This document shows positions 1,398-63,847 of a stretch of 64,000 nucleotides of DNA, in pieces. How positions within the stretch are numbered: the first letter of the stretch is position 1; each line of letters starts with the position of its first letter. The notes beneath the pieces are model-generated. The model did no database searches. It had not been told where the DNA came from and was given only the letters and a program-made list of their open reading frames with translations. The translations under genes were made by a program, and so were the position numbers. Source of the stretch: a virus; IMG/VR virus record IMGVR_UViG_3300045988_101799; one strand, written 5' to 3'.

Positions 1398-1536
1398 TTA
1401 AACCCCGGAATCCCCGGAACCCGTCAAATAACTCTAACCAAATAGAAAGAAAAAGTAGAAAGACAAAGGAATAATTCCCGCCCCCGGAATGCGGGGGATA
1501 TCGGGTGCAACGGGTTCCGGGGATTCCGGGGTTTAA
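1398..1536. repeat. perfect 26-bp inverted repeat (TTAAACCCCGGAATCCCCGGAACCCG at 1398-1423; its reverse complement at 1511-1536) around an 87-nt A-rich spacer with a nested GC hairpin (1481-1497)
   Basis: Reverse complement verified base by base. No long ORF inside; a 15-codon mini-ORF starts at 1489. Confidence 0.8.
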
Positions 1537-10239: not shown

Positions 10240-10746
10240 ATGCACGCTCACGAAGCAATCAACGCAATCGTTTCAACCAAGGTAAACTCACAGGCTTTCC
10301 CCGACCTGCCGGAAGGAAAGGAATCCATGAACGATGCCGTCAACCACCCGAAGCATTACACCTCCCACCCCAGCGGAATCGAGACCATAGAAATTACTGG
10401 CAAGCTTCCCTTCGCATTAGGGAACGCCGTCAAGTATTTGATGCGGTCACAGTACAAGAAGAACCGTATTGAAGACCTCAAGAAAGCACGATGGTATTTG
10501 GAGTACCACGCTAAGCACTGGTCCAAGGTGTTCGAAACGTTTGACCTTTACCTTATCCTTGAACAGTTCAGGCGTACAGTCATGAGCCATAGCTACCAAC
10601 GTAGTCCCGAAGATTCCATTCTGGTACAGCTCTTCTATATCTGGGCGCATGATAAGTTGGTTGAGGTAAACCCCGCATCAGAATTGCAACGATGTATCGG
10701 AGAGATTACCCAGCTAATAGAATCCCTCGAAGCGAAACAGAACTAA
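10240..10746 (+). CDS. DUF3310-like phage protein
   Basis: NHPKHYTSHPSGIETIEI and KY..R..YK resemble the HPSHY/IE..E core of DUF3310 phage proteins (recalled from memory, not searched). Confidence 0.45.
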   Translation: MHAHEAINAIVSTKVNSQAFPDLPEGKESMNDAVNHPKHYTSHPSGIETIEITGKLPFALGNAVKYLMRSQYKKNRIEDLKKARWYLEYHAKHWSKVFETFDLYLILEQFRRTVMSHSYQRSPEDSILVQLFYIWAHDKLVEVNPASELQRCIGEITQLIESLEAKQN

Positions 10747-10751
10747 AACAA

Positions 10752-10785
10752 AAACCCCGGAAGATATTTCCTTCCGGGGTTTTCG
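10752..10785. terminator. bidirectional rho-independent terminator at the point where the two strands converge
   Basis: AAAACCCCGGAAG-atatttc-CTTCCGGGGTTTT. GC stem of ~10 bp flanked by an A-tract and a T-tract, so it works in both directions. Lies between the last plus-strand gene and the last minus-strand gene. Confidence 0.7.
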
Positions 10786-10869
10786 CTTAGAACCCAAACA
10801 ACTTACAGTCCAAACAGAATGATGTCGTTGCGGATTCTTTATACCATGCAGTACCTATGATGTCAATAC

Positions 10870-11926: not shown

Positions 11927-14900
11927 CTACTGCTTCATCCGATTATGAATTTCCTCCGCACTCAATGCCCCATCAATCTGAATGCTACCCTTCCTCATGA
12001 GGTTGATAATGAGTTTCTTCTGCTCTTCGATTAGGCGTTTGCCCTCGTCCGTGGTATTAGACTTCTGCAATTCGCGGTTGAGCTTCGCGATAGCCTCACG
12101 TCCTGCTTGCGGGCTGATGATGTAGGGCATGATGCCTTTCATGGCCGCGCCGTAGGTCTTGGCACTCATACCGGAAGTCTCAATCGCGGAAGCCAGAACT
12201 TCCTTCCGCAGAGCGGGGTCAAGCATGTTTGTAATTTCCGTAACAAACCGGACACTATTGACTAGCTTGGTGAAATTCTTCACGGCATCCGCGGTTTCCA
12301 CGGCTTCCATGAGTTCCACATCCACCCCGGATTCCATTCTCTTGTAGAAGTCCGGACGAAGAACGCTCGTTCGCTTTGACTTAGTGACTGCCGCGTTGGC
12401 ATTCTTTAACCCGGCGGCAAGGGCTTCGGTCAAATCCTTCGGACGACGGAGGCCCGCACCCAAGGACTGTAACCCGTATGCCGCGGCACTCATGTCAGGT
12501 GTATCGCTAAACGCTTGTTTACCTGACTTGACTGCCCAGCCGTAGAAGGGAATCTTTTTATTGGCAACCGTCGCGAATCGTTCAAGGACTTGCCATGTAT
12601 GTCCACTGCCGAACGAGGGGTTCAGCCCTGCGGCCAACAGGATTGCGTTGCCGACTGCCGGGAGAACGTTGACGCTTTCATCACCGGAGAGGCTATGCTT
12701 GTAATTGAAGTCTTCCTCATTAAACAATTCAGAAGCGGCATTCAGAAGGAGGGATTCTTCAAGCACCGTATTTTCCAGCAGGTTTTTCAGTTCGGCAACC
12801 TTGTTCATCCCCCACTTGTCCACATCCATATCCATGAAGAGGCTGGGCAGGGTTTTGGCTAACACCTTGATGGTCTTGAACGGGTTCATGTATTCAAGGT
12901 TCAAATACTCGAACTCATGTCGCTTCATATCTATGATGCCAATCAAGTCCCCGAACTTATCGTAGTCTGGAATTAGACCACTGTCTGCCAGCTTCCTCAT
13001 GACTTCCGCGTCGTCAATGATTTTACGGTCATCGTCATCTCCCAAGACACTGGTGATAATCTGTCGGGCAACCCAGGAAGAGACCGCAGAGGTTGCAGAA
13101 ATAGTTCCTACGGAACCAGCGATGCGAACGAAAGCGCGTCCCAAGAGGTAAGCCCCCTCCTTCTTCATGCCGTTATTGATAGCCCACACACCATCTACCC
13201 CTTCGCCTATGGCGTGGCCAAGGTTGTAGACTACAGACTGGGCGGTATGGTACTGGAACATGAAGAACGGAGCCGCAACTATATTCAGGGTTTTCACCCA
13301 CGAAGGAGTACGTGAACCCGTGGGGAGCAAGCTCTTCACCATGTGGGCAGTATACCTATCCACATACGCATTCCAACTCTGGGTAGTCTGGCTCGCGTCA
13401 ATGAGTATCTGGTCCCGTGCATTGGGGGTGTCCTTGCCCATCGCCCGTGCCAGTTGTACCTTTAATTGGGTATCGGCAATCGCTCTCTGGTTAGTGAAGA
13501 GAACAATCTTGGCCGCCGCGTCCGGCAAGCCATAGGCGAAGGACATCGTTTTGATGGGCCATGCTACGACTTTGCCCGCCATCTTGGCGGCATCCTTAGC
13601 CACCTCGCCCTTCGTCCGTTCCTGTTTCTCGTTCAGAGCTTCGGCCAGTTTGAAGAAGGAATCCTCATTCACTTCTTCAAATTCTCCTGCCATCTTACTG
13701 AACTCGTCAGACTTCCAGACGTTGCGCAGGAACTCCCCTTGACCTGCGTCCAGCAGACCAAGCTCTTGCCAGTAGCGAATCTTCTCGTTGTACCTGTCTT
13801 CCGCGGCCAGCAGTCTATCCGCGGAAGCCTGTGAAGCAAGGTCCCTGCCCTGTGATAGCCACCATAGCTTACGCAACTGGACCCAGTCCCCGACAAGGTT
13901 TGCGATGTCTTTACTCCCCGTGAATGGAAGTGCACCCGCATGGGTCATTTGAGCTACTGTACCATATAAGTTACGTAACGTGGAATTAGGACTCGCTATT
14001 AAGACAGAAAGGTTAGCCAAGCCACCCGCCTTACTCCACCATTCTTGACCCTTGCCGGACTTCTGCCAGTACTTGCGCACCTTCTTATAGTCGTCCGTCC
14101 TGCTATTCAGGATGTCGTCGCTCGGTCTGTAGATGCGGTAGATGGCATCGGCTACATCCTTGTCGGCGTACATTCCGTTCAACGCATTCTTCGTATTCTT
14201 CAAGGAGATTTCCACCATGTCCGAAGTACGGTTCGTGGAATTCGGGGGTACGACCACACCCTGTGCCTTGAGCACGGAGGTATACTCGTCAGCAAGCAAC
14301 TGGTTCACGGCAATCTTCGACTGCATGGATAGGGTATTCTGTAACGTCCCAATGGCATCCCCAATGGTGAGGTCGCTAAGTTCATACATAGCTTTCCTCT
14401 GCCATTCGGGCAAGCGTTTCCGCTGGGCCAGCGCATCTTCATTCGTCCTCTTCTTGGACAGAACTTCGTCAATGGCCTTCATGGCATCGTTCACCGCAAG
14501 ACGGGAGAGTTCCGGATATTGCAACACTTTCAAGTCGGTAGCGGAGATGACGTTGCCCATATTGTTCGCCCCCATGAGAATGCCCGCCTGACCGCGAAGA
14601 AGATTGAGCGTCTTGTCCAGTCGTTCTGCGGCATTCATATTCGGAGCGTTCCATATCTGGTCAATGGCCGAAGTCGGGATAGTGGGGATGACCTTGTTCA
14701 CTTCGGAAGCCACGGATGCCGGGGAATCAAGACTGCCGATTTTGTCCGCAATCGTTTTTCCCGGAAGGTCGGAGAAGACTTCGGCGAGGAAACTATCTCT
14801 GGCTTTCATGTCCAGAGTTTCCTTCGTCTCTGTCATCTTTGACTTCGTGTGATAGTCTGCCTGTGCTATCATGCTCATGGCCTTATCATATATGGCACTG

Positions 14901-17900
14901 ATGTTGTGGCCGTCCCTCAAATCTGCAAGCATTTGAACCGCGCCGAAGTTGTTCTGAATGAAGTCAAGAATTTCCCGGTTCCTGTAGTTCTTGGCTACAC
15001 CTTCGAACAGGAGTTTATAATTCGCAGAGGCTCCCGTGGGAGCTGACACCAGCGGAAGTTTCAACTCGTCGTGGAGCGCGGCCAATGCCTGCATGTTGTC
15101 CAGCACTTGGCTTACGTTTTCGGATAGTTCTCTCTGGTGCGCTTCGGCATGAGAGATTGCGGCTTCCTGCAACAGTTTCGTCAGACCGTCGTATTTCTGC
15201 GCCAGTTCTCCGTTGGGGTTTGCGATGATGTCCTTCATCGTCCGGGTGAAGTCTCCGGCATGGCGTCCTACGGCCATGTAGGTGCGATGAAGATAATTCA
15301 TCTCCGCGGCGTTGTCAGCCATACGGCTATCTCCAATGAGCTTGGCAATAGAGATTTGCGTTGCGGCAATTTCTTTACGGGAATCGGCGATGACATTGTG
15401 GACCAGTTGACCTACAACCCCTTGTGACAGAAGCCACTGTTCAGCGGCATCCCGCTTAGCCATATACTCCGCTTGTTTTTGACGGCGTGCATTGAGGATA
15501 GCGTTGTCCCGTTTCAGCCACACGGAACCAGCAGGGGTAGCTACGCCAGCGCGAGTTACACCCGCCTTCTTTGTTGCGGCGTAGAAATCCTCCTTGGCTT
15601 CCCGGATGATTTGTTTAGCTTCGGCCCGTGCCTTAGCGATGTCCTGAATCATAGGAGCGACGGCGGGATGGTTTGTACTCTCCGCATAGAGGAAGTCATT
15701 GCGAAGGTTGGACCACCTGTCCAGAAGTTCATCCATAGAGAAGGGACTATCCGCTTCGTTAATCATATCCGCGAGATAGTTTTGCGTGTCGCGGGCAAGA
15801 CCGAAGTAGGCAGTTTCCAGATTGGCATCCCCCGTCGCGGAGATACGAGAGCCGAGGTCGGAGAGCGATTTGTGAATCTGCTGGGAGAGCATGGGGAGAG
15901 CTACCTGCTTGTCCAGCATGGCACCATATCCCTTGCCGCTCATGTCTTTAATCCGGCGCATCATGTCGTTGATTTCCAATCGCCCTTCACTATTAAGCGC
16001 AAGGGAGTTAGCCAGACGCACCGCTTCCGCGTGCCTATTGACGGCATCGGTGACGGTCTTCTTAGCCAACGCGATACGGAAGTCGCGGGTCTGTTCATGC
16101 TGACGAACTTCTGCTTGAGCCTCTGCGTTAATGCGTGCAACAGTTTCAGGGTCAATATCGTTGTCCATATTCCCCGACATGTCAAGAATGGACTTGCTCC
16201 ATTTCTTTCGCGTAGCGGCATCCCAGCCCAGATTATCCGCACGGCGTTGAAGCATATCGCCGATTTTGTCAATGCGTTTAATACTACGTTCGTATGCCGC
16301 ATTCACGTTGGCCATTTGTTCCAGCACAACCAGCTTCTGTTCCTCGGACTTAACATTGATGCCAGCCTTGTCCCAGTTCTTGGTTACACCCAGCCATCCG
16401 TTCTTAATACTAGTCACCCAGTTCCCGGCATTCGTGCCAATGATTTCTGCGCCAAGGCCGAAGGACAGTCTCCGGGTCATGTCAGTCTCATAGGCCATCG
16501 GGTTAAAATAATCTACCCCGTTGCCCATAGTATAATCCGTATCGTCTACCTTCCATGACGGAGTGCGAGGCATATCGAACCACTTGCCGGGGGTCATGTC
16601 CGCGACGCGGGCCACATAGGAATCCCATTCAGCCACGCGTTCTGCGGCGGTGGTTCCGTCCATATCGTCCGCAGTTTGTCGCACGTCCCTAATCAAATCC
16701 TTAAGCCATTCGACGAGGCGCACATGAATAGGCTTCCGGCCTCCCGCCGCTTCGGCATAGCGAGCCAAATCCGTGATGGTGATATTGTCTCCACTAGCTT
16801 CCGCTACCATGAAGTTCATGACAGGATTGGAGAACGCGACACTGGCAAATTCGTCCGGGCCGCGGAGACCGTAGTTGAGGTCGGAAGCGAGCGCGGCGAT
16901 GGCATTCATCTCATTGATGTCCACGCTAGCGTCATACATAGCGGAGAGACTATCAACAATATTGTTGTAGTTCTCTGCAATCGCGCTTCTAATCTTATCC
17001 ATCCGCTGGGAATAGTCCGTGTTGGTGGTACGAAGATGACGGTCAATGAGGTGGATGACTTCGTGTAGTACCGTTCCCGTTACGCTTTCAATCGCATTGT
17101 CCCGGTTCACGTACAGGTCAATGACACCGCCGACAAGCTTCCCGTCCGTGCCGTTCATGTAGGTGATACTGGCGGGGGAAGAGATGTTCGCCGGAGCATT
17201 GGTTGCACGGATAGCAACATCCAAACCAGCGGCATGCAGTGCGCGGAGCACTCCATCAATGGCCGCGGCCTGTGCGGGAGAAGCATTAACTTGAAGGTCC
17301 GAAAGGATGCCGTAGGCATTTGCGCCAGTCCCATCCGTCGGGAGATTGAGAGCGGAGACCTTGTCTCCCCACTTGGTGCTAGGTGTCCCTCCCTCACCTG
17401 CGTTGTACATGCTTGCGTGCGGAGCGATGACAATGGTTTCTCCCGTGTTGCTGGTAATCATGGGGGCGTTAATCCCGGTCATCTCGTTCAGGGAGACGAG
17501 CTTCGCGCCGCGCTCCAATGGCGTACCATAGGAGAGCCACGCACCAGTATTACTATCGAACGAGGCGATTGCCGCATCCATGTTATCCACGGTTTCCACG
17601 GAACTGGGGGTAACTACTCCCGTCTCTACCATAGCAGTGATGGGGGCAATAGCATTGTCCCTCTCCTTCCGGGCAATAGCTACCGGGGATTCCTTGGGTT
17701 CCGTGGTAGCCGTGGTAGCCGGGGATTCCGTGGTAGCCGCGGCTTCCGTCAATCCGTTGATGACGTGAAGAGCGGCGTCGAGGTCTTCATCTCCTGTAGT
17801 AAGGATGGACAGGTCGTCGTCTACTTCGATAACCTGAACCCGGTCTCCCATAGCATCAAGGGCCTCCGAAAGCATGGTTCGCATGGTGTCGAGGTTTTCC

Positions 17901-20900
17901 TTATTTGGGAATGACAGGGTATTGGGCAAGTCGTTAATGGCTTCTGCCATGAAGGAGCTTGCCGCGGCACTGCCCTCATAGGTATGTATTTCGGAGGCCC
18001 GTTCAACTAGGTTGCGGAACTGGGTGAAGTTGCTGATACCCATACGGACTGCGCCATCCACCCATGCCTTGCGGGTTTCGTCGGAGACAACTAGACTTTC
18101 ATGGGCAATGGATTTGTCCACCCATTCGCGGGCAACTTCCGCGGCATCCCCCTTCTCCCCGGCAATCTCGATAACCTTCTTTCCGGTTTCTACCAAGCTT
18201 TCCGGCACATTGTTTTTGGTAATGGCTTTGCCCGTTTCCTCGATGATGTTGCTCGCATCTTTCGTAATATCCGGTAGCATGGAAGTAGCATCCTTTACAT
18301 CGAGAGTGGGGGCGGCTTCGGTTTGGAAACGTATGTTCCCCTCACCAGCTAAGTGGCTACCAACGTAGCCGCCGATACCTCCGAGGAAAGCAATCTTCAT
18401 AGCCCCACTAATCACTTGGTCAGTAGTGGCAATAGAAGATTCGGAGATTTCTCCGTTCTTCACCAGTTCGGTAAATGCCCATTCTTGGAATTCGTCTGTC
18501 AGTTCTTCGGTGGCTCCTTCCACTACGGCCTTGCTCGTGCTGTACAGATAGGAAGCAACGGCAAACGTCTTTTCCTTCGTGTTCATCTCCTTAAATGGCT
18601 TGCTTCTCCATCCGGCCATCTTCCGTTCAAGAGTTTGGAATGGAGATTGACCGCGAAGGTTTTTAGCCCCAACAATCTTACGCATGTAGGAATCCATACC
18701 TGCGCGGTTGTTGATGAGAGTACTACCAGTAGATACGAGAGCCGCACCAAAGAGGGCACGCATGTTGGCAATGCTCTGTGCCCTGTTCGTGTTCTCGGCA
18801 GTCGGTTCCTTCCCTTCCATCTCCCTATCATAAATGGTATAGAAGATGTCGGAGTAAGCATTCGGTGCAACCTGCGAGATGATGCTAAGATTTACCCCAG
18901 CTCCGGCTCCTGCCCGTTCGAGGTTCAACGCCGCAAGGTTGTCGAGGTTGCGCTGAATAGTTCCACTCAAACGTCCCGCCAATCCCGGACGGGCGGCAGG
19001 GACAAGAGCTTCGGCCCGCTTCGCTACGACGTTAGCCGTTGCCTTCGCGAACCGCGATAGCGCGGTACGTTCCAGTGCACGGCCAGCGAGGCCGCCAACT
19101 TTACCAGCTCCCGCGGTCGCTACCATTTGGTAGCCGAGGTTAGCGATTTCCGCAGTATAGTCCGCAAGGATATTGCCTCGAACAAGTTCAGCTTCCGCTT
19201 CCTGTTTTTTGTTCAGCTGGTCCCAGAGGGTGCGGGTATGTTCCATCGCCGCACGACTGCCAACTGCATTCTGTGCAAAGAGAAGAGCACCATAGGCGGT
19301 ACTTGTCCCAAGGTCGATTGCCTTGTGCGTACCTATCTGTAACCCGCGGAGAACAGAGTTGATGGTGTCTTGCCCTTTCTCCTGCCATGCGGAGAGGATG
19401 TCCTCGTCGCTCTTGCCCGCTTCCTTCTGTTCGTTGTAAAAATTCTTGAAGGAAAGGTGCTTGTCCAGATGCTTCATGGATTCAGTCAAGATAGGGTTGA
19501 ACTGCAAGCCGGAGCCAAGCCACGTATCGCGAAGCGTCCCCAGCGTCTCGTCCAATGCAATGTTGTCCTTCACAAGTTCCTGTGCGGATTTCTTGCGGAG
19601 GTTCTGGAACTTCTCAATGGTGCGATTGATGAGACCTTCGTCCGCGCCACTAGCACGGAGAGCCTCTATGCTCTGGTCCATCAGCTTATCATTGTAGAGA
19701 GCATTGGGGTTCAGTTCGAGTGTGGCGTTCGTATCAACTTCCTTGGTGTGCGGGTTGTACGCAAAGAGACTGCCACGGCCAACACCCAAGTCACCCATAC
19801 GTGCGGCATGGGAGAGGGAGTTAAGGGCATCGCGAGTACTTTCAATATGGTACTGGGCCATGTATTCCTTCAACTGTTCGGGACCTACTTCAAAGGATGG
19901 GCCGCCCGGCACGCCATACTGCCATGAGCCACGCTTCGTTCCCTTCCCCCATTCCATCAAGCTCATTGGGTCAGCGGTCTTACCCACACTATTATCCGGC
20001 TGGAAGGTAAGTACGTCCGCAATTTGTCCCGCCGTGCTTCGGTAGTTAGCCATTGCGCCTTTGACTGCATCCATGAGGGTGCCTCTCGGTGTAGCTTTGG
20101 CGGTATAGTCCTGAATCAGTTTGGTTACTCCCGCTTGACGCAGGGCGGATTTTGGAACCCCCGGAAACCTTGTGGCCACGGCTTCCAGTATAGCCTCACT
20201 CATGCCAATCTGTTCGGGGTTTTCGACGGTCAGAGGGCGGTCCTTCTGGCGGTGAACTTCCTCGGCAATGACCTTTGCCCGTGCACGTATTGCGTCCATG
20301 TCAGCACCGGGGACTAAAGACAGAAGGGCAGAGGCCGCGGCCTCTGGATTGAGAAGCGCGTCGCGAAGTTCGAGATAGGGAAGGCCAGTGTAGTCCTCTT
20401 CGAGGCGTCTTACGATTTTGTCTGCGGCTTCTATCTGTTCACGAATCCTATCATCAACAGGTTTTTCTTTTTTTGAAATGAGTTTTGCTTGGTCTGTATG
20501 GAGTTGTTTCGCATACGCTGTAGCAGATTCCGGGGATTTAATATCTTCCGTACTCCGGGAAAGGTAATCCCCGTAGTCGCGGACAAGCTGGAACATTTTG
20601 CTGGGAGACTTGGAAAGGTTGGCGAGTTCAGCAAAAACATTCCCAGTAAATGAAGGTGCTGAATCAGAGAATTCGCCAACGCCAAGCTCCCCCACGCTCG
20701 TTTGGCTGGGAGTTTTCTTCTGCACGCCCTCCGTCGAAGAAGAGCGGTGTTTGTCGTAAAGAGCCTTAGCGGCACGATAGTTGCCAATGTCTTCGCGCCT
20801 AATCGTATTGATGACGCTTTCTATTTCTTCTGCGGTGTAAGCAATAGGTGCGGTCTCGATGGCTTGTGCCGTAGGTTTACCTGTTCCAACATCTAGATTC

Positions 20901-21622
20901 GAGTTGAGGTAATCCTTCCGGGCCTTCTCCATTGTGGTGGCAATGGATTTGGCCACCGCCTTTGCGTTACGGTTTCTGTCCGCGGCAATGGCGAGGAACT
21001 TTTCCGTCACGACGGGGTTCCCGTCCTCTCCACTTCCGAAGCCAGAGCGGGATAAGAAGGCGGAGTGCGTAGGCGTAAGCTCGGAAGAAGACACAACGGT
21101 AATTCCCGTATTGTTAGCAAGCTTCTTAATGGCCTCGCTATCGCCGCGGGAGGCGGCCGTCAAATCAACCAGTGCATCCTCTCCGCGCTCTACATAGTCT
21201 TTCATGTAGTCGAATCCCTCAAAGCTGTACCCACGGTTTCCTTTGTTCAAGATGTCGAGGGCTTTATTTTCCTCGGCGGTTTTCCATTCTTGTTCCGTAT
21301 GGGCGCGGGATTTATCTTGCCATTCTACATTCTTCGCGTGTTCCGCATCCTTTTTCTGTTTCTCCGCAAAGTCATCAACAGACTTAAAGAGGAAGGTGTC
21401 ATAGTCTGCGGTCGCCGTCGCTCCCTTCTCGGCACGGGTCTGTCTCTTTTCCGCTAACCTTTGCTCGCGGTCCAGTGCTTTCTGTTCTCGGTCCCGCTGT
21501 TTCTGCGCTTGCGTCTCTTGCCACGCGGCGTGCCTTTCTACGGCACGCTGTTCACGTGCAATACTACTTCCCGACGTCGGAGTGAAGTCGGACATATTGG
21601 CGGTACTAAAGTCAATAGCCAT
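11927..21622 (-). CDS. giant (3231-aa) virion/cargo-like protein with a central HExxH zincin-like motif
   Basis: Uninterrupted 9.7-kb ORF with an ATG start. Largely helical, Ala/Glu/Lys-rich. VLHEVIHLIDRH is encoded at 17051-17065, near aa ~1520. No P-loop, no T7-like RNAP motifs, no DxDGD found. It is the last large gene of the late operon. TAG stop. Confidence 0.8.
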   Translation of the reverse strand: MAIDFSTANMSDFTPTSGSSIAREQRAVERHAAWQETQAQKQRDREQKALDREQRLAEKRQTRAEKGATATADYDTFLFKSVDDFAEKQKKDAEHAKNVEWQDKSRAHTEQEWKTAEENKALDILNKGNRGYSFEGFDYMKDYVERGEDALVDLTAASRGDSEAIKKLANNTGITVVSSSELTPTHSAFLSRSGFGSGEDGNPVVTEKFLAIAADRNRNAKAVAKSIATTMEKARKDYLNSNLDVGTGKPTAQAIETAPIAYTAEEIESVINTIRREDIGNYRAAKALYDKHRSSSTEGVQKKTPSQTSVGELGVGEFSDSAPSFTGNVFAELANLSKSPSKMFQLVRDYGDYLSRSTEDIKSPESATAYAKQLHTDQAKLISKKEKPVDDRIREQIEAADKIVRRLEEDYTGLPYLELRDALLNPEAAASALLSLVPGADMDAIRARAKVIAEEVHRQKDRPLTVENPEQIGMSEAILEAVATRFPGVPKSALRQAGVTKLIQDYTAKATPRGTLMDAVKGAMANYRSTAGQIADVLTFQPDNSVGKTADPMSLMEWGKGTKRGSWQYGVPGGPSFEVGPEQLKEYMAQYHIESTRDALNSLSHAARMGDLGVGRGSLFAYNPHTKEVDTNATLELNPNALYNDKLMDQSIEALRASGADEGLINRTIEKFQNLRKKSAQELVKDNIALDETLGTLRDTWLGSGLQFNPILTESMKHLDKHLSFKNFYNEQKEAGKSDEDILSAWQEKGQDTINSVLRGLQIGTHKAIDLGTSTAYGALLFAQNAVGSRAAMEHTRTLWDQLNKKQEAEAELVRGNILADYTAEIANLGYQMVATAGAGKVGGLAGRALERTALSRFAKATANVVAKRAEALVPAARPGLAGRLSGTIQRNLDNLAALNLERAGAGAGVNLSIISQVAPNAYSDIFYTIYDREMEGKEPTAENTNRAQSIANMRALFGAALVSTGSTLINNRAGMDSYMRKIVGAKNLRGQSPFQTLERKMAGWRSKPFKEMNTKEKTFAVASYLYSTSKAVVEGATEELTDEFQEWAFTELVKNGEISESSIATTDQVISGAMKIAFLGGIGGYVGSHLAGEGNIRFQTEAAPTLDVKDATSMLPDITKDASNIIEETGKAITKNNVPESLVETGKKVIEIAGEKGDAAEVAREWVDKSIAHESLVVSDETRKAWVDGAVRMGISNFTQFRNLVERASEIHTYEGSAAASSFMAEAINDLPNTLSFPNKENLDTMRTMLSEALDAMGDRVQVIEVDDDLSILTTGDEDLDAALHVINGLTEAAATTESPATTATTEPKESPVAIARKERDNAIAPITAMVETGVVTPSSVETVDNMDAAIASFDSNTGAWLSYGTPLERGAKLVSLNEMTGINAPMITSNTGETIVIAPHASMYNAGEGGTPSTKWGDKVSALNLPTDGTGANAYGILSDLQVNASPAQAAAIDGVLRALHAAGLDVAIRATNAPANISSPASITYMNGTDGKLVGGVIDLYVNRDNAIESVTGTVLHEVIHLIDRHLRTTNTDYSQRMDKIRSAIAENYNNIVDSLSAMYDASVDINEMNAIAALASDLNYGLRGPDEFASVAFSNPVMNFMVAEASGDNITITDLARYAEAAGGRKPIHVRLVEWLKDLIRDVRQTADDMDGTTAAERVAEWDSYVARVADMTPGKWFDMPRTPSWKVDDTDYTMGNGVDYFNPMAYETDMTRRLSFGLGAEIIGTNAGNWVTSIKNGWLGVTKNWDKAGINVKSEEQKLVVLEQMANVNAAYERSIKRIDKIGDMLQRRADNLGWDAATRKKWSKSILDMSGNMDNDIDPETVARINAEAQAEVRQHEQTRDFRIALAKKTVTDAVNRHAEAVRLANSLALNSEGRLEINDMMRRIKDMSGKGYGAMLDKQVALPMLSQQIHKSLSDLGSRISATGDANLETAYFGLARDTQNYLADMINEADSPFSMDELLDRWSNLRNDFLYAESTNHPAVAPMIQDIAKARAEAKQIIREAKEDFYAATKKAGVTRAGVATPAGSVWLKRDNAILNARRQKQAEYMAKRDAAEQWLLSQGVVGQLVHNVIADSRKEIAATQISIAKLIGDSRMADNAAEMNYLHRTYMAVGRHAGDFTRTMKDIIANPNGELAQKYDGLTKLLQEAAISHAEAHQRELSENVSQVLDNMQALAALHDELKLPLVSAPTGASANYKLLFEGVAKNYRNREILDFIQNNFGAVQMLADLRDGHNISAIYDKAMSMIAQADYHTKSKMTETKETLDMKARDSFLAEVFSDLPGKTIADKIGSLDSPASVASEVNKVIPTIPTSAIDQIWNAPNMNAAERLDKTLNLLRGQAGILMGANNMGNVISATDLKVLQYPELSRLAVNDAMKAIDEVLSKKRTNEDALAQRKRLPEWQRKAMYELSDLTIGDAIGTLQNTLSMQSKIAVNQLLADEYTSVLKAQGVVVPPNSTNRTSDMVEISLKNTKNALNGMYADKDVADAIYRIYRPSDDILNSRTDDYKKVRKYWQKSGKGQEWWSKAGGLANLSVLIASPNSTLRNLYGTVAQMTHAGALPFTGSKDIANLVGDWVQLRKLWWLSQGRDLASQASADRLLAAEDRYNEKIRYWQELGLLDAGQGEFLRNVWKSDEFSKMAGEFEEVNEDSFFKLAEALNEKQERTKGEVAKDAAKMAGKVVAWPIKTMSFAYGLPDAAAKIVLFTNQRAIADTQLKVQLARAMGKDTPNARDQILIDASQTTQSWNAYVDRYTAHMVKSLLPTGSRTPSWVKTLNIVAAPFFMFQYHTAQSVVYNLGHAIGEGVDGVWAINNGMKKEGAYLLGRAFVRIAGSVGTISATSAVSSWVARQIITSVLGDDDDRKIIDDAEVMRKLADSGLIPDYDKFGDLIGIIDMKRHEFEYLNLEYMNPFKTIKVLAKTLPSLFMDMDVDKWGMNKVAELKNLLENTVLEESLLLNAASELFNEEDFNYKHSLSGDESVNVLPAVGNAILLAAGLNPSFGSGHTWQVLERFATVANKKIPFYGWAVKSGKQAFSDTPDMSAAAYGLQSLGAGLRRPKDLTEALAAGLKNANAAVTKSKRTSVLRPDFYKRMESGVDVELMEAVETADAVKNFTKLVNSVRFVTEITNMLDPALRKEVLASAIETSGMSAKTYGAAMKGIMPYIISPQAGREAIAKLNRELQKSNTTDEGKRLIEEQKKLIINLMRKGSIQIDGALSAEEIHNRMKQ

Positions 21623-27416: not shown

Positions 27417-28175
27417 TTATTTCCTTGACAACAGAGTAAGAGCGTAGGCAAGCCGTGCATTGCATCGGTTGGACCAGCCGGAGAGAAACTTCGCCTTCAC
27501 TGGATTGGCCCTTACAATGGAACAGTAGCGGGCACGACAAGCACGGTCCAGCGAATCGAGAACTACCTTTTCATCCCATGATTGAATGGCGTCTGTCCAT
27601 TTGGCTTGGGTATTTTTCCCCCACTTGCCGTCAATACCAAGGTCGAGCATGCGCTGGACAACCTTGGTCGTTCCCGCCACACCCATGTTGAAGGTCATGT
27701 CGCGAAGCATGAACTCAATGGCGTAGCATCCTGCAACTCCCTTGGCAACCAGTGGTTCCGTATTGGCGAGAACATAGCGGAGACATTCATCCCATGCCGC
27801 ATCTCTATCGCCCCGGTCCAACATGGATTTGATTAGATTGAATTCCTTGGGTTCAATCCCATCACAGATACCTGCAATCTCCCACTTGCCACCGCCGTCA
27901 CCAGAGGGGAGGCGAGTTACGCGCAGAGATTCCGGCCCGGTAATCTTGTAATCCTCCATGTTGAGAATCTTCTTAGCCATGCCCTTGCGGACAAGCTCTG
28001 CCGGGGACACGTATGCCGCGGATACCGGGGAATCGTTGGGTTGTTCATCGGGTACCGGGGATTCCGTGGGTTGTATCTTCTTCCATATAGCATCAATGGT
28101 CTTATCACCAAGGATACCGTCGGGCGTAGTTCCCGCCCACTTCTGTATTTCCTTAATTTTGTTTTTGCTTGTCAT
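27417..28175 (-). CDS. endolysin-like protein with an N-terminal peptidoglycan-binding-type domain
   Basis: The N-terminus (KEIQKWAGTTPDGILGDKTIDAIWKKIQ) resembles PG-binding domain repeats. It is followed by a TESPVPDEQPNDSPV linker and a globular C-domain. Confidence 0.5.
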   Translation of the reverse strand: MTSKNKIKEIQKWAGTTPDGILGDKTIDAIWKKIQPTESPVPDEQPNDSPVSAAYVSPAELVRKGMAKKILNMEDYKITGPESLRVTRLPSGDGGGKWEIAGICDGIEPKEFNLIKSMLDRGDRDAAWDECLRYVLANTEPLVAKGVAGCYAIEFMLRDMTFNMGVAGTTKVVQRMLDLGIDGKWGKNTQAKWTDAIQSWDEKVVLDSLDRACRARYCSIVRANPVKAKFLSGWSNRCNARLAYALTLLSRK

Positions 28176-28620
28176 TAGTTTTTTCTACTTTGATTCCATC
28201 CGAGGTTAGCTTCCCCAATGAGATTTGAAGGTTAATAATGTTCGCCATCGACTGGGCAATTTCTCTGGCCCAGCTTTCGAAGTGAAGAGTGCCCAATGGG
28301 GTGGCAATGTCCGTGAGAATGGTGGCAATAGTGTCCCCATTCATGGACACCCTCACGGCATCCGAGAATTCTTCTACCTTGGCTTTCGCGGGTAAGTGGT
28401 CGATTTCGTACCACATAACATCCTGTATCTCTTCGTCTTCATCATCCGCTTGGGGATATTGGACACGAACGACACCAGCAACATCCTCGTCGGACATTAC
28501 CCGGAGGATAGACCCTGTTGGGATGCTATCCCCACACATGCCACATCTCCCCGTATCTATCCGAAGAACAACGTCGCCGCACTTAAATCTGGTCTTAACT
28601 TTTCCGGGTCCTGCTTTCAT
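28153..28620 (-). CDS. hypothetical protein with an N-terminal RFKCGDVVLRIDTGR Tudor/SH3-like motif
   Basis: 155-aa ORF. Motif shared with ORFs 28595, 36682 and 5024. Confidence 0.5.
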   Translation of the reverse strand: MKAGPGKVKTRFKCGDVVLRIDTGRCGMCGDSIPTGSILRVMSDEDVAGVVRVQYPQADDEDEEIQDVMWYEIDHLPAKAKVEEFSDAVRVSMNGDTIATILTDIATPLGTLHFESWAREIAQSMANIINLQISLGKLTSDGIKVEKTNDKQKQN

Positions 28621-29032
28621 TTTCGTTTTTGGTTTTGTTTATATCTGGTAATATGACATGCTCGTTGAGGTCTTCAACAATCTGCTTGGCCCAGTCCACT
28701 AATTCCTCGCACATATCGACCTCTTGGTCGCCCAGCCGGTACTTGGTAGGTATGCGGAGAACGGGCTGATAGTTGAAGAGGATGATAGCCTCGTCCCGTG
28801 TGTATCGGACGAAGACTTCATGTTCGGTCTCTTCCACTAGCTCAAACTCATAGAAGGGATACCACTTCCCTTCGTTGTCCTCGGTCTTGATAAGGATGCA
28901 GTGGTTTCTATCTTCCCCGCTTTGAACATACGCTAAAGAACCCTCCGCTAGGCTCTCCCATATTTCTGGATGTCTTCCTGTGTTGATGAACCGAACAAGG
29001 TCTCCCTTTTTGAATCTGCGTTTGTTAGTCAT
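28595..29032 (-). CDS. hypothetical protein (MTN start; RFKKGDLVRFINTGR motif); translationally coupled to the paralog array
   Basis: Frame of track ORF 28595..29170. Start placed at ATG 29032 (MTNKRRFKKGDL). ATGACTAA gives the same 8-nt overlap with the upstream stop that is used within the array. Confidence 0.45.
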   Translation of the reverse strand: MTNKRRFKKGDLVRFINTGRHPEIWESLAEGSLAYVQSGEDRNHCILIKTEDNEGKWYPFYEFELVEETEHEVFVRYTRDEAIILFNYQPVLRIPTKYRLGDQEVDMCEELVDWAKQIVEDLNEHVILPDINKTKNENESRTRKS

Positions 29033-29282
29033 TGAAGATTGGTTGTTCCTTTTCGACGAAGGTAATCCCCGTGTCGGATTCTTCCGTCGTGCATTTCTTA
29101 ATCTTGTCACGAAGTTCGATTGCCATTTCGAGGGCGAAGTCTCTTGTCGGAAGTCCCTTCTCATCCTCATTCCTGTGATAGGGGAACATAGCGATACGGT
29201 AGTTTCGATGAATCACCGCAATGATTCCTGCTCGCGGGTATTCCATTAAGAAGGTTTCCAGTAGATATTTATCGTTGGTCAT
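29025..29282 (-). CDS. small paralog family member P1 (type A)
   Basis: MTNDKYLLETF...GIIAVIHRNYRIAMFPYHRNEDEKGLPTRDFALEMAIELRDKIKK. The internal ATG at 29282 overlaps P2's stop by 14 nt. Confidence 0.55.
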   Translation of the reverse strand: MTNDKYLLETFLMEYPRAGIIAVIHRNYRIAMFPYHRNEDEKGLPTRDFALEMAIELRDKIKKCTTEESDTGITFVEKEQPIFND

Positions 29283-29505
29283 TGTTGTTCCTTTTAAGTT
29301 TAAATCCTTTTTCGGTTTCGATAATCGTGCTCTTCTCAATTTTGTGGGCAATCTTCGTTGCCAGTTTCTTTGCCGCGTCTCGCGTCATGAAGCCCCGTTC
29401 GTCCCACTCTGTGTAGTAGAAAAATTGGGCAACGGCAATCCCATCATATTCCACTTCGAACCCGCCGAGCATTTTATTCTCGAAAATTCTTACTTTGTCG
29501 TTCAT
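29269..29505 (-). CDS. small paralog family member P2 (type B)
   Basis: 78 aa. Has the ...FFYYTEWDERGFMTRDAAKKLATKIAHKIEKSTIIETEKGFKLKRNNNDQR core. Confidence 0.6.
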   Translation of the reverse strand: MNDKVRIFENKMLGGFEVEYDGIAVAQFFYYTEWDERGFMTRDAAKKLATKIAHKIEKSTIIETEKGFKLKRNNNDQR

Positions 29506-29508
29506 GAT

Positions 29509-29757
29509 TTATTCGTCTTGGATTGTACAGTCCGTCGGGCAAAGGTCAATGCCCCTTTCTGTCATAACGGGATTCGTGTGGATGAGATGGCGAGCAACCA
29601 TCTTCGCCATTTCTATAGCCCTTTCGCGCGTGGGATAACACTGTTCCTTCTCGCCTCCCTCCCGACAATAGTTAAAGATGGCAAAGGTAGCTCCCTCATA
29701 TTTCACCTTGAGGATTCCTACTCTCTTATTATCTACAATACTAATCTCGTTGGTCAT
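29509..29757 (-). CDS. small paralog family member P3 (type A)
   Basis: MTNEISIVDNKRVGILKVKYEGATFAIFNYCREGGEKEQCYPTRERAIEMAKMVARHLIH. ATG at 29757 overlaps P4's stop by 17 nt. Confidence 0.55.
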   Translation of the reverse strand: MTNEISIVDNKRVGILKVKYEGATFAIFNYCREGGEKEQCYPTRERAIEMAKMVARHLIHTNPVMTERGIDLCPTDCTIQDE

Positions 29758-29983
29758 TGTTGTTCCTTTTAAGTTTAAATCCTTTTTTGGTTTTGATGGT
29801 CGTACTATTTTCAATTTTGCGGACTAGCTTCTCGGTCAGCTTCTTGGCTTGCTTCTTGGTGAAATGTCCTTCCTCGCCTTCCGTGCAATAGTAAAAGGCG
29901 GCAACGCAACAGTTTTCAAGCATGACCCGGAAAAATCCGGCAATGGGGTCATCTACGGTGGTAATATTTAGAGTGTCAGTCAT
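29741..29983 (-). CDS. small paralog family member P4 (type B)
   Basis: 80 aa. FYYCTEGEEGHFTKKQAKKLTEKLVRKIENSTTIKTKKGFKLKRNNNDQRD. Confidence 0.6.
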   Translation of the reverse strand: MTDTLNITTVDDPIAGFFRVMLENCCVAAFYYCTEGEEGHFTKKQAKKLTEKLVRKIENSTTIKTKKGFKLKRNNNDQRD

Positions 29984-30212
29984 TAGTATTGTTCCTTTTA
30001 AGTTTGATTCCCATCTTTGTTTCTATGACCGTGCTCTTCTCAATTTTGCGGGCGAGCTTGATGGCTAGTTTCTTAGCTTGCTTCTTGGTGAAGAAGCCGC
30101 TTTCATCTGCCACGCAATAGTTGAAAACGGCGACGCAACTTCCTCTGTGCCTGACGTGGAACATTCCGCTAGTAGGGAGGTCATAAACACGGGTATCTGA
30201 ATCGTTATTCAT
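29976..30212 (-). CDS. small paralog family member P5 (type B)
   Basis: 78 aa. FNYCVADESGFFTKKQAKKLAIKLARKIEKSTVIETKMGIKLKRNNTND. 8-nt overlap with P4. Confidence 0.6.
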   Translation of the reverse strand: MNNDSDTRVYDLPTSGMFHVRHRGSCVAVFNYCVADESGFFTKKQAKKLAIKLARKIEKSTVIETKMGIKLKRNNTND

Positions 30213-30441
30213 TGATGTTGTTCCTTTCCAATTTGATTCCCTTTTCGGTTTCGATAATCATGCTCTTCTTAATTTTGCGGGAGAGCTTGTCGGCCAGTTT
30301 CTTAGCTTGCTTCTTGGTGAAGAAGCCACTATCATCTTTCGCGCAATAGTAAAAGGTGGCAACGCAACAGTTTTCAAGCAGGACCCAGAAAAATCCGATA
30401 TCGGGGTCATCTATGGTGGTAATATTTAGAGTGTCAGTCAT
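30205..30441 (-). CDS. small paralog family member P6 (type B)
   Basis: 78 aa. The N-terminus MTDTLNITTIDDP is nearly identical to P4. 8-nt overlap with P5. Confidence 0.6.
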   Translation of the reverse strand: MTDTLNITTIDDPDIGFFWVLLENCCVATFYYCAKDDSGFFTKKQAKKLADKLSRKIKKSMIIETEKGIKLERNNINE

Positions 30442-30673
30442 TGGTGTTGAAATAGATTTGGTTAAGTGATACTCCCTCGATGGTACAAACTGTCCCTCTG
30501 CTAACTACGTAGCGGGCAATCTTCGTTGCCAGTTTCTTTGCGGAATCTCGTGTCATATATCCTTGTTCACCAGAGCCAGTGCAGTAAAGAAAATCTGCAA
30601 TGACACTTCCACAGTGAGTTACTCGGAAGAATCCAAATCCTTTGTCTTCTAAAATAGCTACTTTGTCGTTCAT
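30434..30673 (-). CDS. small paralog family member P7 (divergent type B)
   Basis: 79 aa. MNDKVAILEDKGFGFFRVTHCGSVIADFLYCTGSGEQGYMTRDSAKKLATKIARYVVS. 8-nt overlap with P6. Confidence 0.55.
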   Translation of the reverse strand: MNDKVAILEDKGFGFFRVTHCGSVIADFLYCTGSGEQGYMTRDSAKKLATKIARYVVSRGTVCTIEGVSLNQIYFNTND

Positions 30674-32347: not shown

Positions 32348-32427
32348 ACACAGAAGAAGATTCTGGTCAAGAAATTTTTAATTGGTATGACACAACCGCA
32401 CACGCTAGTGCCGAGGGTGCAACGAAG

Positions 32428-32476
32428 GAACCCACGGAACCCATTGTGACCATTTGGCCGTGGGTTCCGTGGGTTC
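32428..32476. repeat. perfect 16-bp inverted repeat / hairpin (GAACCCACGGAACCCA ... TGGGTTCCGTGGGTTC, 17-nt loop)
   Basis: Reverse complement verified. Lies in the intergenic gap between the GT2-like gene (stop at 32534) and the next gene (start at 32347). Confidence 0.7.
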
Positions 32477-32533
32477 CGTGGGATTTAACGTCCTGACATT
32501 TCGATGTACGAAATCGATAAGCCAGTTGTACTG

Positions 32534-35546: not shown

Positions 35547-36563
35547 TCATTTTTCTTGGGACTTCATAGTTAATACGAAGCTATTCCAGTGGGCTACCGC
35601 TTCTTCGCGAGTGCGGCCATGAATGGAAATGCTATGTGGAAGAAGCTTGGTCCCGTTGCAGACAACATAGCAATGTTTCTCTCCGGGGTAGATGGTTTCC
35701 TCCACGACCTCCGGGATTTCTCCACAGTAGGGGCAGGGACGTGGATGGGCGTCGCAGGCTTCAAAATACCGTCGCACCTCTTGCCCCACTCTTTCGGTAA
35801 ACATATCAACAATATGCTGTGGCACGATTCCTTTGATTCCGGAACCCACGGTGCCTTCGTCCCCGGATTCCGTGGCTTCCTCGTAGTTCAGGGGATGGTC
35901 CAGCCCCTCGTCGAAACAGGAAGCACAGGGTCCCACGGTTCCGGGCAAGTCCCCGTACTTGCATGTGGAGCAGGGGGAGAGGACATCCTCTTCATCCTCT
36001 TCCGCTTCTTCATATTCCGGGTACTCAATTCCCCGCTCCTGTCGGCAATGAGAGCATGGAGGATTGCAACGGAGGTTATCCCGGTGAGTGCAAGTATTGC
36101 ACGGTTCGATGACATCATCGTTCTCGTCTGTACCTTCGGCACATGGGGCAGATTCATCTGGGGTATAATTCTGATAGCCGTTGCAGGAGATGCAGGGTTC
36201 CTCTTCGATAGATACCCCCTTATGTTTACATGTCAGACAGGTAGGACCAGCCATCTCGGCTTCCCTCCGCTTTGCTTCTTCCCGCTTCATCATCTCCATC
36301 GCCGCCAGCTTGTTGGTATCGGAGGTGAAGCTGGGAAGTCCGGGAGTGAGAGCACACTTCTGACAGGGGGATTGCACCAGCAAGGTATCACGGAATTTGC
36401 AGAGGGAGCACCTCCGTGCATCCTCGCTTGCCGCGGTGTCCGTCGCTTGCGTGGATTCCGTGGATTCAAAGTGGCTAAAGTACATGTCACAACTGGCGCA
36501 GGGTTCCGCGGTGTCGGGGAGGTCACGGTATGCGCAGGTAATACAATTCGGTTCGTCGTTCAT
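35547..36563 (-). CDS. multi-zinc-ribbon protein with a C-terminal Lar-like (restriction alleviation) domain
   Basis: Five tandem C-x2-C-x(11-13)-P-C-x2-C modules (CITCAYRD...CASC, CSLCKFRD...CQKC, CLTCKHKG...CISC, CNTCTHRD...CSHC, CSTCKYGD...CASC). The C-terminus RPCPYCGEIPE...HCYVVCNG...EEAVAHWNSF resembles Lar family proteins (PCPFCG...EAIEAWNRR). Confidence 0.6.
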   Translation of the reverse strand: MNDEPNCITCAYRDLPDTAEPCASCDMYFSHFESTESTQATDTAASEDARRCSLCKFRDTLLVQSPCQKCALTPGLPSFTSDTNKLAAMEMMKREEAKRREAEMAGPTCLTCKHKGVSIEEEPCISCNGYQNYTPDESAPCAEGTDENDDVIEPCNTCTHRDNLRCNPPCSHCRQERGIEYPEYEEAEEDEEDVLSPCSTCKYGDLPGTVGPCASCFDEGLDHPLNYEEATESGDEGTVGSGIKGIVPQHIVDMFTERVGQEVRRYFEACDAHPRPCPYCGEIPEVVEETIYPGEKHCYVVCNGTKLLPHSISIHGRTREEAVAHWNSFVLTMKSQEK

Positions 36564-48474: not shown

Positions 48475-48966
48475 TTATTTTGGTTTACTTGCTTTGAGGG
48501 CGCGGCGTTCAGCCTGTATGCCCAAGGATGTGTCCGCTTGAGGCGGCAGGATATTGAATGCCCATTCAGTTACCAACTGCTGGAAGAGATACCAGCGGAA
48601 GTAGAGCTGGGATTCGACGAGAGGCTCATACATTAGATAGGAGAAGAAGGGGTACTTTCGAGGACTGCCCGGAGTTAGCGTGAGGGGTCTAACGAGTGGG
48701 GTTTCCGTACTATTCGAGAATATCTTTGTCCGAAAGTATTTAGGACGCACTCCATATATGGGGTCAACATCCTTAAAGGCCATCACGTGTGTAGGGTTCG
48801 CCCGGTCAGGGTAGGGGTGCATGACCTCGCCACGTGTAGGCGCAAGCCTCGCGGACTTCCCGTTCACCCACGCAAGGTAGTAGGCACGGTATCTCCATGC
48901 TTTTCCCCACACCTCCTTATCCTGTGCTACCTCATGGAAGATAGCCGCGTTCTCACTTATCGCCAT
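48475..48966 (-). CDS. hypothetical protein
   Basis: 163-aa ORF. Confidence 0.45.
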   Translation of the reverse strand: MAISENAAIFHEVAQDKEVWGKAWRYRAYYLAWVNGKSARLAPTRGEVMHPYPDRANPTHVMAFKDVDPIYGVRPKYFRTKIFSNSTETPLVRPLTLTPGSPRKYPFFSYLMYEPLVESQLYFRWYLFQQLVTEWAFNILPPQADTSLGIQAERRALKASKPK

Positions 48967-49717
48967 TGTCGGACGTGGGTTTCAGGTTTTTATCCTCTTG
49001 TGCGTCTGCAAGGTAGTTGACGAAGTTAATGAAGGTAGCCGCGTCAAATTCGGGCAGTTCGTTCTTGTAACTGGCATACGCGCTTGTATTCGCCATCGGG
49101 ATTGCGGGCCAAGGTTTATATTCCTTGGTCAGCTTCTCGGCAATACTGCGTAAGAACTGACTATATTCCTCCGACGGTGCGATGAGGGAAAGGAAGACGT
49201 CCACCCCGTCAGGGCTACCGGAGGTCTCTACCTCCCTGTCAAACGTCAGCGGGTCGTCCGCGTACTCGACATGGGAGAGCTTGGCATTGTACTTGTTCGT
49301 TCTCTTGACGGTCTTCTTGTACTTCTTCGCGTGTTCGCGAAGCTTGTCAAGGTCATCGAGCCACAGAGGAACCTGTTGCCACCATGAACGCATAGCTTCT
49401 ACCCGCAAGCGGATAAGATAGGATGAGCGCATGATTTGGGTCAGGCATCCACAATGATGTTGCTTGCGCGTTAATTGCAGACGGTTCATCGTGACTACAT
49501 TCCCACATGCACATTGCGCGACATACGGATATCGGACATCGTGAGAGTACCCGATAACTGTTAGAATCCCTTGGGTATGACCAACAGGCAACGGTTCATC
49601 ATCCGTTCCCATATAATCGGGGAACGTTTCTGGGGTCTTCACTTCCTCCGGCAAACCCATAAGGGCTACCGGGGTCCAACGACGGAATACTTCTTGGATT
49701 GATTCGGGTTTGGACAT
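48953..49717 (-). CDS. hypothetical protein
   Basis: 254-aa ORF with Cys/His pairs (CACGN..HHCGC). Confidence 0.45.
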   Translation of the reverse strand: MSKPESIQEVFRRWTPVALMGLPEEVKTPETFPDYMGTDDEPLPVGHTQGILTVIGYSHDVRYPYVAQCACGNVVTMNRLQLTRKQHHCGCLTQIMRSSYLIRLRVEAMRSWWQQVPLWLDDLDKLREHAKKYKKTVKRTNKYNAKLSHVEYADDPLTFDREVETSGSPDGVDVFLSLIAPSEEYSQFLRSIAEKLTKEYKPWPAIPMANTSAYASYKNELPEFDAATFINFVNYLADAQEDKNLKPTSDNGDK

Positions 49718-63806: not shown

Positions 63807-63847
63807 ACCCGCCCGAAGAGTATACCCGCCTTCTAGGTCGATACGTC

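Follow-up and report, generated by a model that had tools for sequence, protein, structure and literature searches.

A mosaic tandem array of small paralogous genes in a human-gut phage: possible recombining recognition modules with a probable relationship to AP2/integrase arm-type domains

Viral gene accordions are tandem units that gain and lose copies when their repeats recombine, so that copy number is not the same in closely related viruses; the poxvirus K3L gene is one such case. In phage T6, a tandem amplification driven by SegB is described as a counter-defence gene accordion (PMC13096335). For tandem paralogous genes within a bacterial species, PMC2568036 reports that the unit of evolution spans gene junctions. 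A further point of reference is the AP2/integrase arm superfamily of DNA-binding domains, whose core is built of three antiparallel strands and a subsequent helix. The locus described here lies in the IMG/VR virus record IMGVR_UViG_3300045988_101799, of which a stretch of 64,000 nucleotides (nt; hereafter the window) was analysed. It contains seven paralogous open reading frames (ORFs) of 78–85 amino acids (aa), arranged head to tail on the minus strand at 29025–30673, followed by two further genes, Q8 and Q9.

The explanation favoured here is that the array is a dispensable, recombining set of accessory recognition modules for interaction with the host or with nucleic acids, and not a set of virion building blocks. 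This reading is tentative, with a probability of roughly 0.4. In this proposal, each protein would consist of a constant helix scaffold (T-[KR]-x-x-A-K-K-L-A...) bearing a variable recognition surface formed by the beta-sheet and a hairpin. The set would be expanded, contracted and re-assorted by homologous recombination, both within the conserved DNA that codes for the helix and at the gene junctions, which are conserved as well. The products would act in the infected cell by recognising nucleic acid or nucleic-acid-associated host factors, in a regulatory, host-takeover or counter-defence role differing between phage strains. For the basic B, C, D and F types, the target would most plausibly be DNA.

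The paralogs are numbered P1 to P7 in the 5' to 3' direction of the minus strand, and their module types are lettered A to G in the same order (Table 1). They can be aligned over their whole length. Pairwise protein identity is 26–65%, and nine columns are invariant in all seven (M1, G14, V18, A26, F28, Y30, T41, A45 and G67). A sequence-only reading of the window had described a tandem, co-directional array of seven paralogs of about 80 aa, and this array is real. The same reading had placed an overlap at every junction and had seen the next gene, Q8, coupled in the same manner. The coupling of P7 to Q8 is confirmed, and overlaps of 8–17 nt are present at six of the seven junctions, but P5 and P6 are separated by a gap (TAA ATC ATG) and do not share an ATGA-type overlap. 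The overlap of stop codons with start codons suggests that translation is coupled and yields roughly equimolar products. The ATG starts of P5 and P7 lie within longer ORFs beginning with TTG.

Other elements of that reading require revision. The 45-aa core attributed to all seven proteins is found in P2, P3, P4 and P6 and partly in P1, but not in P5 and P7 (AIEMAKMVARHL and ALEMAIELRDKI, respectively). The C-terminal tail, KL[KE]RNN, occurs in four copies (P2, P3, P4 and P6) and not in five; the gene at 30434–30673, which had been numbered from the other end as P7 and called type B, carries no tail. The proposed order A-B-A-B-B-B-B, taken as the amplification of an ancestral A-B pair, gives way to at least seven module types, for which the tail is a poor marker. 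In the structural model, this tail is a low-confidence terminal stretch, and it overlaps the start of the next gene. Tail-coding DNA is also present in P7 in another frame, which is better explained by homologous DNA with insertions and deletions. Conservation of the tail DNA (AAAGGAACAAC) as the ribosome-binding site of the following gene was considered and rejected as the main explanation, because the phage does not generally use Shine–Dalgarno (SD) sequences. An SD-like motif precedes 11 of the 54 gene starts in the window, 5 of these 11 being inside the array, and the upstream regions are A-rich.

The repeats within the array are far beyond chance expectation. The longest good shared tract joins the 5' modules of P2 and P4 (92 of 100 nt identical), while exactly identical tracts between paralogs reach only 28–41 nt and are sited at gene junctions and starts. 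P6, for example, is identical to P1 over 28 nt in the start region and to P4 over 41 nt at the 3' end. Moreover, identical tracts of 36–42 nt cross the P4–P5 and P6–P7 junctions. Such junction-crossing tracts are consistent with unequal homologous recombination that takes place both within the conserved helix-coding DNA and at the junctions. Four stretches previously called near-identical are only 77–89% identical to each other. They had been read as recent duplications, but have the appearance of tracts exchanged between old paralogs by recombination or gene conversion and not of recent whole-gene copies.

Related phages differ in the size and make-up of the set. With the upstream 169-aa gene as the query, 32 IMG/VR loci were found at 93–99% identity, and further loci were added by exact-protein look-ups. 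Arrays bounded by the 169-aa gene and Q8 were counted as complete (n = 33). Five members are present in 12 of these, six in 8 and four in 7, while arrays of two, three and seven members were each found twice, which puts the window's array at the observed maximum. Two additional loci are without Q8, and one of them, L027, is down to one member. Copy number runs from one to seven and the arrays are mosaic; the relatives do not have the single, undiversified copy that would have spoken against the sequence-only reading. Measured against a gene accordion, copy number does differ between close relatives (two to seven in complete arrays, with a flank 93–99% identical), but the units are not near-identical, given 26–65% protein identity, exact tracts of 28–41 nt and a single tract of 92/100.

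Not only the number but also the order and combination of members vary by phage, for example E-A-B-C-D-G, A-D-E-F-G or A/F-G. When the N, middle and C modules of each relative were typed against the window's seven genes, chimeric members such as FFa, BDd, CCB and DDF were recognised. Nearly every related array ends with type G, and E-A often stands at the front. Across phages, the set is stable in types E, A and G and in Q8 and Q9, while B, C and D form the expandable and variable part. At the sequence level, types A (including the N-module of P1), F in its N-part, and G are nearly invariant among related phages, and a small number of sites differ in the N-modules of B, C and D. Independent samples share arrangements (L001 and L002 are alike, as are L008, L009 and L035), and individual family protein sequences occur on as many as 81 contigs, so that most of the variation is unlikely to be an artefact.

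The array members are real coding genes under purifying selection, with ratios of nonsynonymous to synonymous substitution (dN/dS) of 0.15–0.5. The calculation covered about 176 family genes from 40 related loci and pooled pairs that are close within each region. It gave 0.50 for residues 1–13, 0.46 for the sheet, 0.51 for the loop, 0.26 for the helix and 0.15 for the C-terminal hairpin, values which describe a pattern rather than provide a test, as the pooled pairs are not independent. This bears on the idea that the genes are functionless or selfish remnants, namely decaying DNA-binding domains of homing endonucleases or integrases copied by slippage, or that their diversity is largely an artefact of assembly. 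AP2-type domains do occur in phage HNH homing endonucleases and integrases, an HNH-like gene is present in the window, and frameshifted and truncated family versions exist in the database. However, purifying selection acts on all regions, and intact ORFs with the conserved junction architecture are found on hundreds of contigs, one cluster alone holding 224 member sequences. Together with the recurrence of arrangements in independent samples and the retention of a cassette in two distinct phage lineages, this makes decay or artefact very improbable.

The family had been called unrecognised and without an assignable fold. The first statement stands, since P1–P7 have no significant match in Pfam, PHROGs or PADLOC; the second now needs qualification, because an AP2/integrase-arm-like fold is moderately supported. 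In the AlphaFold2 model of P1 (mean predicted local distance difference test score, pLDDT, 78.6), the order is strand-strand-strand, helix, strand-strand. The fold would be the three strands and helix of the AP2/arm core with an extra N-terminal strand and a C-terminal beta-hairpin. The Pfam family PF14657 (Arm-DNA-bind_4) appears below its threshold in 18 of 48 family members, with the best E-value of 0.015 for P2, while every other Pfam family is matched by at most 3 of the 48, among them a single AP2 (PF00847) match at E 0.15. An alignment of these 48 sequences was compared by hhalign with the N-domains of four phage integrases confirmed to carry PF14657 at 29–44 bits. The result was a probability of 62%, P 7.5e-5 and a score of 26.5 over 49 columns, against a mean of 9.4 (standard deviation 2.1, maximum 17.9) for column-shuffled controls and 8.4 for a reversed alignment; the match is of moderate strength, and the arm-domain family was picked for it after the hmmscan hint. 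A made-up arm-domain consensus, which served only to fetch real integrases, found no chain in the PDB. A double-stranded RNA-binding domain, which the TKKxAKK or KKxAK-like helix start might bring to mind, received no support, as neither a helix-three strands-helix fold nor a Pfam dsrm match was found.

Several observations weigh against the assignment and the recognition role built on it. The best Pfam score for PF14657 is 15.3 bits, compared with a gathering score of 22.3 that no member reaches. The lines of evidence for the fold are not independent, as all of them rest on the strand-to-helix segment G-[FY]-x-T-[KR]-x-x-A, and a Foldseek search of the family against the PDB gave no significant match; family profiles likewise matched no PDB sequence. 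In integrases, a basic N-terminal K-R-G-K-x-W motif contacts DNA. This motif, invariant in the four integrase domains, has no counterpart in the family: the hhalign match begins after it, and the family residues before G14 are acidic or neutral. At the position aligned with the invariant Arg of arm domains, P1–P7 carry R, W, H, R, K, E and A. Moreover, no cognate DNA sites for the family were identified, types E and G as well as Q8 and Q9 are acidic (isoelectric point, pI, 4.8–5.7), and some of the mosaics, and of the fusions joining array members to Q8 or Q9, could be products of short-read assembly. The family is therefore best described as a stand-alone one with a probable distant relationship to the AP2/integrase arm-type DNA-binding domain and not as an established member of that superfamily, because of the sub-threshold Pfam scores, the lack of a significant structural match in the PDB, the dependence on one shared segment and the lost DNA-contact residues. 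In types B, C, D and F, the helix and C-part have a net charge of +6 to +10, and DNA binding by these types appears plausible from charge; for the acidic E, G, Q8 and Q9, it appears doubtful on the same grounds.

The division of the paralogs into acidic and basic ones suits a different explanation as well. The proteins may be protein-binding inhibitors or adaptors, in which the AP2-like fold is a mere scaffold and proteins are bound by the C-terminal hairpin and by the sheet face, which is variable and in part hydrophobic. The proposed partners are defence nucleases, RNA polymerase, NusG-type factors, capsule regulators or the array proteins themselves; in the last variant, which is possible, acidic E, G, Q8 and Q9 would associate with basic B, C, D and F. 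The array would then track variable host targets, as anti-defence and host-takeover genes do; the anti-defence, superinfection-exclusion or host-takeover role put forward in the sequence-only reading is likewise possible. Dispensable and strain-variable copy number, mosaic modules, variability focused on few sites within the N-modules of B, C and D, and the loss of the DNA-contact motifs of arm domains are all consistent with this. The same is true of a Lar-like restriction-alleviation gene 5 kb upstream and of the tandem amplification of anti-defence loci documented for T-even phages (PMC13096335). On the other hand, no match to a known anti-defence or defence protein was obtained in Pfam, PHROGs or PADLOC, pooled dN/dS is below 1 in every region with no overall signal of positive selection, and types A, F and G are nearly invariant. 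The KOW-like domains of the partner genes and the helix of types B, C, D and F, which is exposed and strongly basic, suggest nucleic acid no less than protein. Protein binding is considered the main rival and less likely than the favoured explanation.

These partner genes, Q8 and Q9, belong to the same system as P1–P7, and counting them, the array is really one of nine genes. Q8 is predicted to consist of a KOW/SH3-like N-domain (approximately residues 12–67) and a C-domain of five strands and a helix. The N-domains of Q8 and Q9 are paralogous (47% identity over 38 aa, E 1e-7 in BLASTP) and are modelled as a five-stranded barrel structurally similar to KOW domains, although neither matches Pfam KOW (PF00467) at E ≤ 1. 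The family profile aligns with the C-terminal approximately 70 aa of Q9 across the entire domain (hhalign E 5e-4, 60 columns), and by this profile match the Q9 C-domain is a divergent copy of the array-family domain. For the C-half of Q8, the hhalign comparison with the family was not significant (E 0.09–0.14). In some related phages, however, this domain stands alone as a gene of 75–88 aa with the family's MTN start, and in size, position, stand-alone short forms and predicted topology it looks like the family domain. Proteins in which an array member is joined to Q8 or Q9 are present in the database, in some cases with the join at homologous positions (P0252, P0254, P0158), and in-frame fusions of an array member with Q8 occur repeatedly (P0151, P0178, P0201, P0202, P0205, P0212, P0216). 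The recurrence of these in-frame fusions suggests that the products work side by side. The KOW/SH3-like domains of Q8 and Q9 are the sole fusion partners of the family domain: the members are stand-alone proteins of about 80 aa, and none carries a catalytic module such as a tyrosine recombinase or an HNH nuclease.

The family is confined to two metagenomic phage groups, human-gut phages of about 70 kb and a lineage with contigs of 106–173 kb. A full HMMER scan of 1.84e9 cluster representatives placed it in 22 clusters at E ≤ 1e-3. Two word-indexed profile searches returned only unannotated proteins of about 80 aa, on contigs of 65–72 kb or 106–173 kb. Relatives that are distant or fused to other domains were not found in a third large search for homologues at E ≤ 1, and a search of GTDB genomes with Q8 and P0156 as queries found none at all. 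Among 50,697 phage records, neither megablast with 6 kb of the window nor tblastn with a 418-aa ORF gave a match, and the large terminase (TerL) matched phage records at 26% only. In the larger lineage, the family takes the form of a three-gene cassette of an E-type gene, an A-type gene and a 127-aa homologue of Q8, that is, of the KOW fusion. Immediately upstream of this cassette lie a fibre-like gene of 500 aa and a gene of 116 aa, homologues of the 712-aa and 130-aa genes of the window, and the cassette is itself followed by NADAR/DUF488 and PIF1-helicase genes.

The placement of the cassette next to a fibre-like gene brings in the possibility that the products are accessory to the virion or tail fibre, whether as fibre assembly chaperones, adaptors or packaged and ejected proteins. 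In the window, the array sits in a long block of co-directional genes, located between those for the large terminase and the endolysin, in which a terminator scan revealed no convincing internal terminator. A position within the late block is plausible, and gene overlap is typical of co-assembled products. Nevertheless, one to seven copies among near-identical phages are hard to square with a stoichiometric structural or assembly role, and the virion or fibre role is less likely because of this variation. Furthermore, the fold likenesses are to nucleic-acid-binding domains (AP2/arm and KOW) and not to known fibre chaperones, and no structural PHROG family is matched. The family was not found to be a known structural or chaperone family, an outcome that would have overturned the sequence-only reading. 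A structural function is, on balance, improbable.

Table 1. Coordinates of the array genes, neighbouring genes and repeats in the window, and of the related cassette in the second lineage
Feature	Position	Strand	Size	Remarks
P1 (type A)	30434-30673	-	79 aa	First array member; no KLKRNN tail
P2 (type B)	30205-30441	-	78 aa	N-part acidic, helix basic; 8-nt overlap with P1
P3 (type C)	29976-30212	-	78 aa	pI 9.7; 8-nt overlap with P2
P4 (type D)	29741-29983	-	80 aa	8-nt overlap with P3
P5 (type E)	29509-29757	-	82 aa	Acidic; divergent helix AIEMAKMVARHL; 17-nt overlap with P4
P6 (type F)	29269-29505	-	78 aa	3-nt gap after P5, no overlap
P7 (type G)	29025-29282	-	85 aa	Acidic; 14-nt overlap with P6
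Q8	28595-29032	-	145 aa	Starts MTN; 8-nt overlap with P7
Q9	28153-28620	-	155 aa	26-nt overlap with Q8; 23-nt overlap with the endolysin gene
E-A-Q8 cassette	L041 9001-9866		three genes	Second lineage; also in L042, L043 and L048
Endolysin gene	27417-28175	-		Downstream side of the co-directional block with the array
Large terminase gene	50413-52257	-		Upstream side of the co-directional block with the array
Lar-like protein gene	35547-36563	-	338 aa	C-terminal Lar-like restriction-alleviation zinc ribbon; weak match (PF14354 E 9e-4, below cut-off; phrog_599 E 1.8e-4)
HNH-like gene	48953-49717	-	254 aa	Matches an HNH endonuclease (phrog_374 E 1.9e-6); follows the large terminase gene on the coding strand after about 700 nt
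Giant ORF	11927-21622	-	3231 aa	Counterpart of 3212-3214 aa in related phages
Repeat in endolysin gene	28019-28074		26 nt	Direct repeat, 85% identity, 30-nt spacing
Iteron-like repeats	62400-62920			Dense; TAACAACTATAACAAGCA five times at ≤3 mismatches (0.03 expected), both orientations, 9-nt TAACAAGCA periodicity; GCGTAACAAC three times; several 30-50-nt inverted repeats
Inverted repeat	1398-1424 / 1510-1536		27-nt arms	Arms 85 nt apart; CCCCGGAA / GGGTTCCG motif
Hairpin	10746-10788		18 nt	CCCCGGAA / GGGTTCCG motif; end of plus-strand gene block
Inverted repeat	32427-32443 / 32461-32477		17-nt arms	Perfect arms; CCCCGGAA / GGGTTCCG motif; in the 32348-32533 gap
Direct repeat	63269-63357 / 63747-63835		89 nt	80% identity; non-coding, near window end
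Direct repeat	63848-63894 / 63939-63985		47 nt	85% identity; non-coding, near window end

The window covers most of a phage genome of 67–72 kb from human-gut metagenomes; the names of some records carry 'CHAT13', which may stand for the Le Chatelier 2013 cohort, and the format of one IMG sample ID resembles that of HMP. The wider gene order on the minus strand begins with genes for a primase-helicase, PolA, a helicase, an exonuclease and TerL, continues with unknown genes and the Lar-like protein, and then, after further unknowns, leads through the array, Q8, Q9 and the endolysin to a 985-aa and the 3231-aa protein. The two last-named proteins have no Pfam, PHROG or PDB match, and the 712-aa protein has neither a PHROG match nor PDB relatives. 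The size of the 3231-aa protein recalls the virion-packaged giant proteins of N4-like and crAss-like phages, a resemblance that the searches do not support. The N-domain of the primase-helicase has a BT4734-like match that remains below threshold (19.9 versus 22.4 bits). Together with the SD-poor gene starts and their A-rich upstream regions, it is a weak hint of a host independent of SD sequences, for example a member of the Bacteroidota; promoter motifs of the Bacteroides type are not enriched in the window. No tRNA genes or Rfam families were found there.

Several repeats outside the array were noted as well. The iteron-like repeats occupy a 1.7-kb non-coding region upstream of the primase-helicase gene and are possibly a replication origin or an early regulatory region, with no link to the array shown. 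The inverted repeats that share the CCCCGGAA / GGGTTCCG motif are perfect or nearly so and look like terminator or regulatory hairpins. The repeat within the endolysin gene lies in the part coding for a stretch rich in Pro, Asp and Ser (TESPVPDEQPNDSPVS), which comes directly behind the N-terminal PG_binding_1 match.

If the array proteins are recognition modules, they make up a compact library of small binders, re-assorted naturally in an abundant uncultured human-gut phage, and a new stand-alone branch of the AP2/integrase-arm superfamily. They would also provide a tractable case of phage tandem paralogs that expand, contract and exchange modules, as well as a strain-level marker of phage–host adaptation. 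The joining of Q8 and Q9, which lie between the array and the endolysin gene, to the same system changes the choice of genes to study. If, instead, the proteins are inert or structural, the locus would still be a clear instance of junction-centred recombination in a phage gene family, though of limited wider interest. A more far-reaching version of the recognition-module proposal, which is a long shot, envisages a natural module-shuffling system. Strain-specific sets for the recognition of DNA or protein would be produced by continually re-assorting N-terminal sheets and C-terminal hairpins on an AP2-like scaffold, and gut phages would use them to reprogramme or disarm strain-variable host functions, such as defence systems and capsule or antitermination regulators. 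In that case, stand-alone domains of the integrase-arm-like kind would be the building material of a counterpart to diversity-generating retroelements that works by recombination.

Compared with the described systems, the array shares with the AP2/integrase arm superfamily the strand-to-helix motif G-[FY]-x-T-[KR]-x-x-A and probably the core topology. It differs in that its proteins stand alone at about 80 aa, with no recombinase or HNH domain, and are predicted to add an N-terminal strand and a C-terminal beta-hairpin. The K-R-G-K-x-W motif and the invariant Arg are not kept, several paralogs are acidic, and the genes form a tandem multi-copy array, with no integrase seen within the window. 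The lineage-specific expansions of AP2 domains, namely the ApiAP2 proteins of Apicomplexa and AP2/ERF of plants, are eukaryotic transcription factors with demonstrated DNA binding and dispersed genes, whereas the phage genes are tandem and overlapping and their products are candidate DNA binders. The likeness to the KOW/SH3-like barrels of NusG/Spt5, ribosomal L24 and OapB is limited to the N-domains of Q8 and Q9, which are joined to an AP2-like domain and not to an NGN domain, in proteins that are acidic. As in the tandem clusters of PMC2568036, the units of DNA that are conserved and exchanged extend across the junction, from the 3' end of an ORF to the 5' end of its neighbour, but those clusters are bacterial, whereas the array consists of phage genes with overlapping stop and start codons. 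Finally, the units of viral gene accordions are recent, near-identical and under acute selection, while those of the array are old and diverged (26–65%) and are also re-assorted into mosaics. The family, present in no library, is new: a stand-alone, tandemly arrayed variant of what is probably a known kind of domain, with accordion-like and mosaic dynamics.

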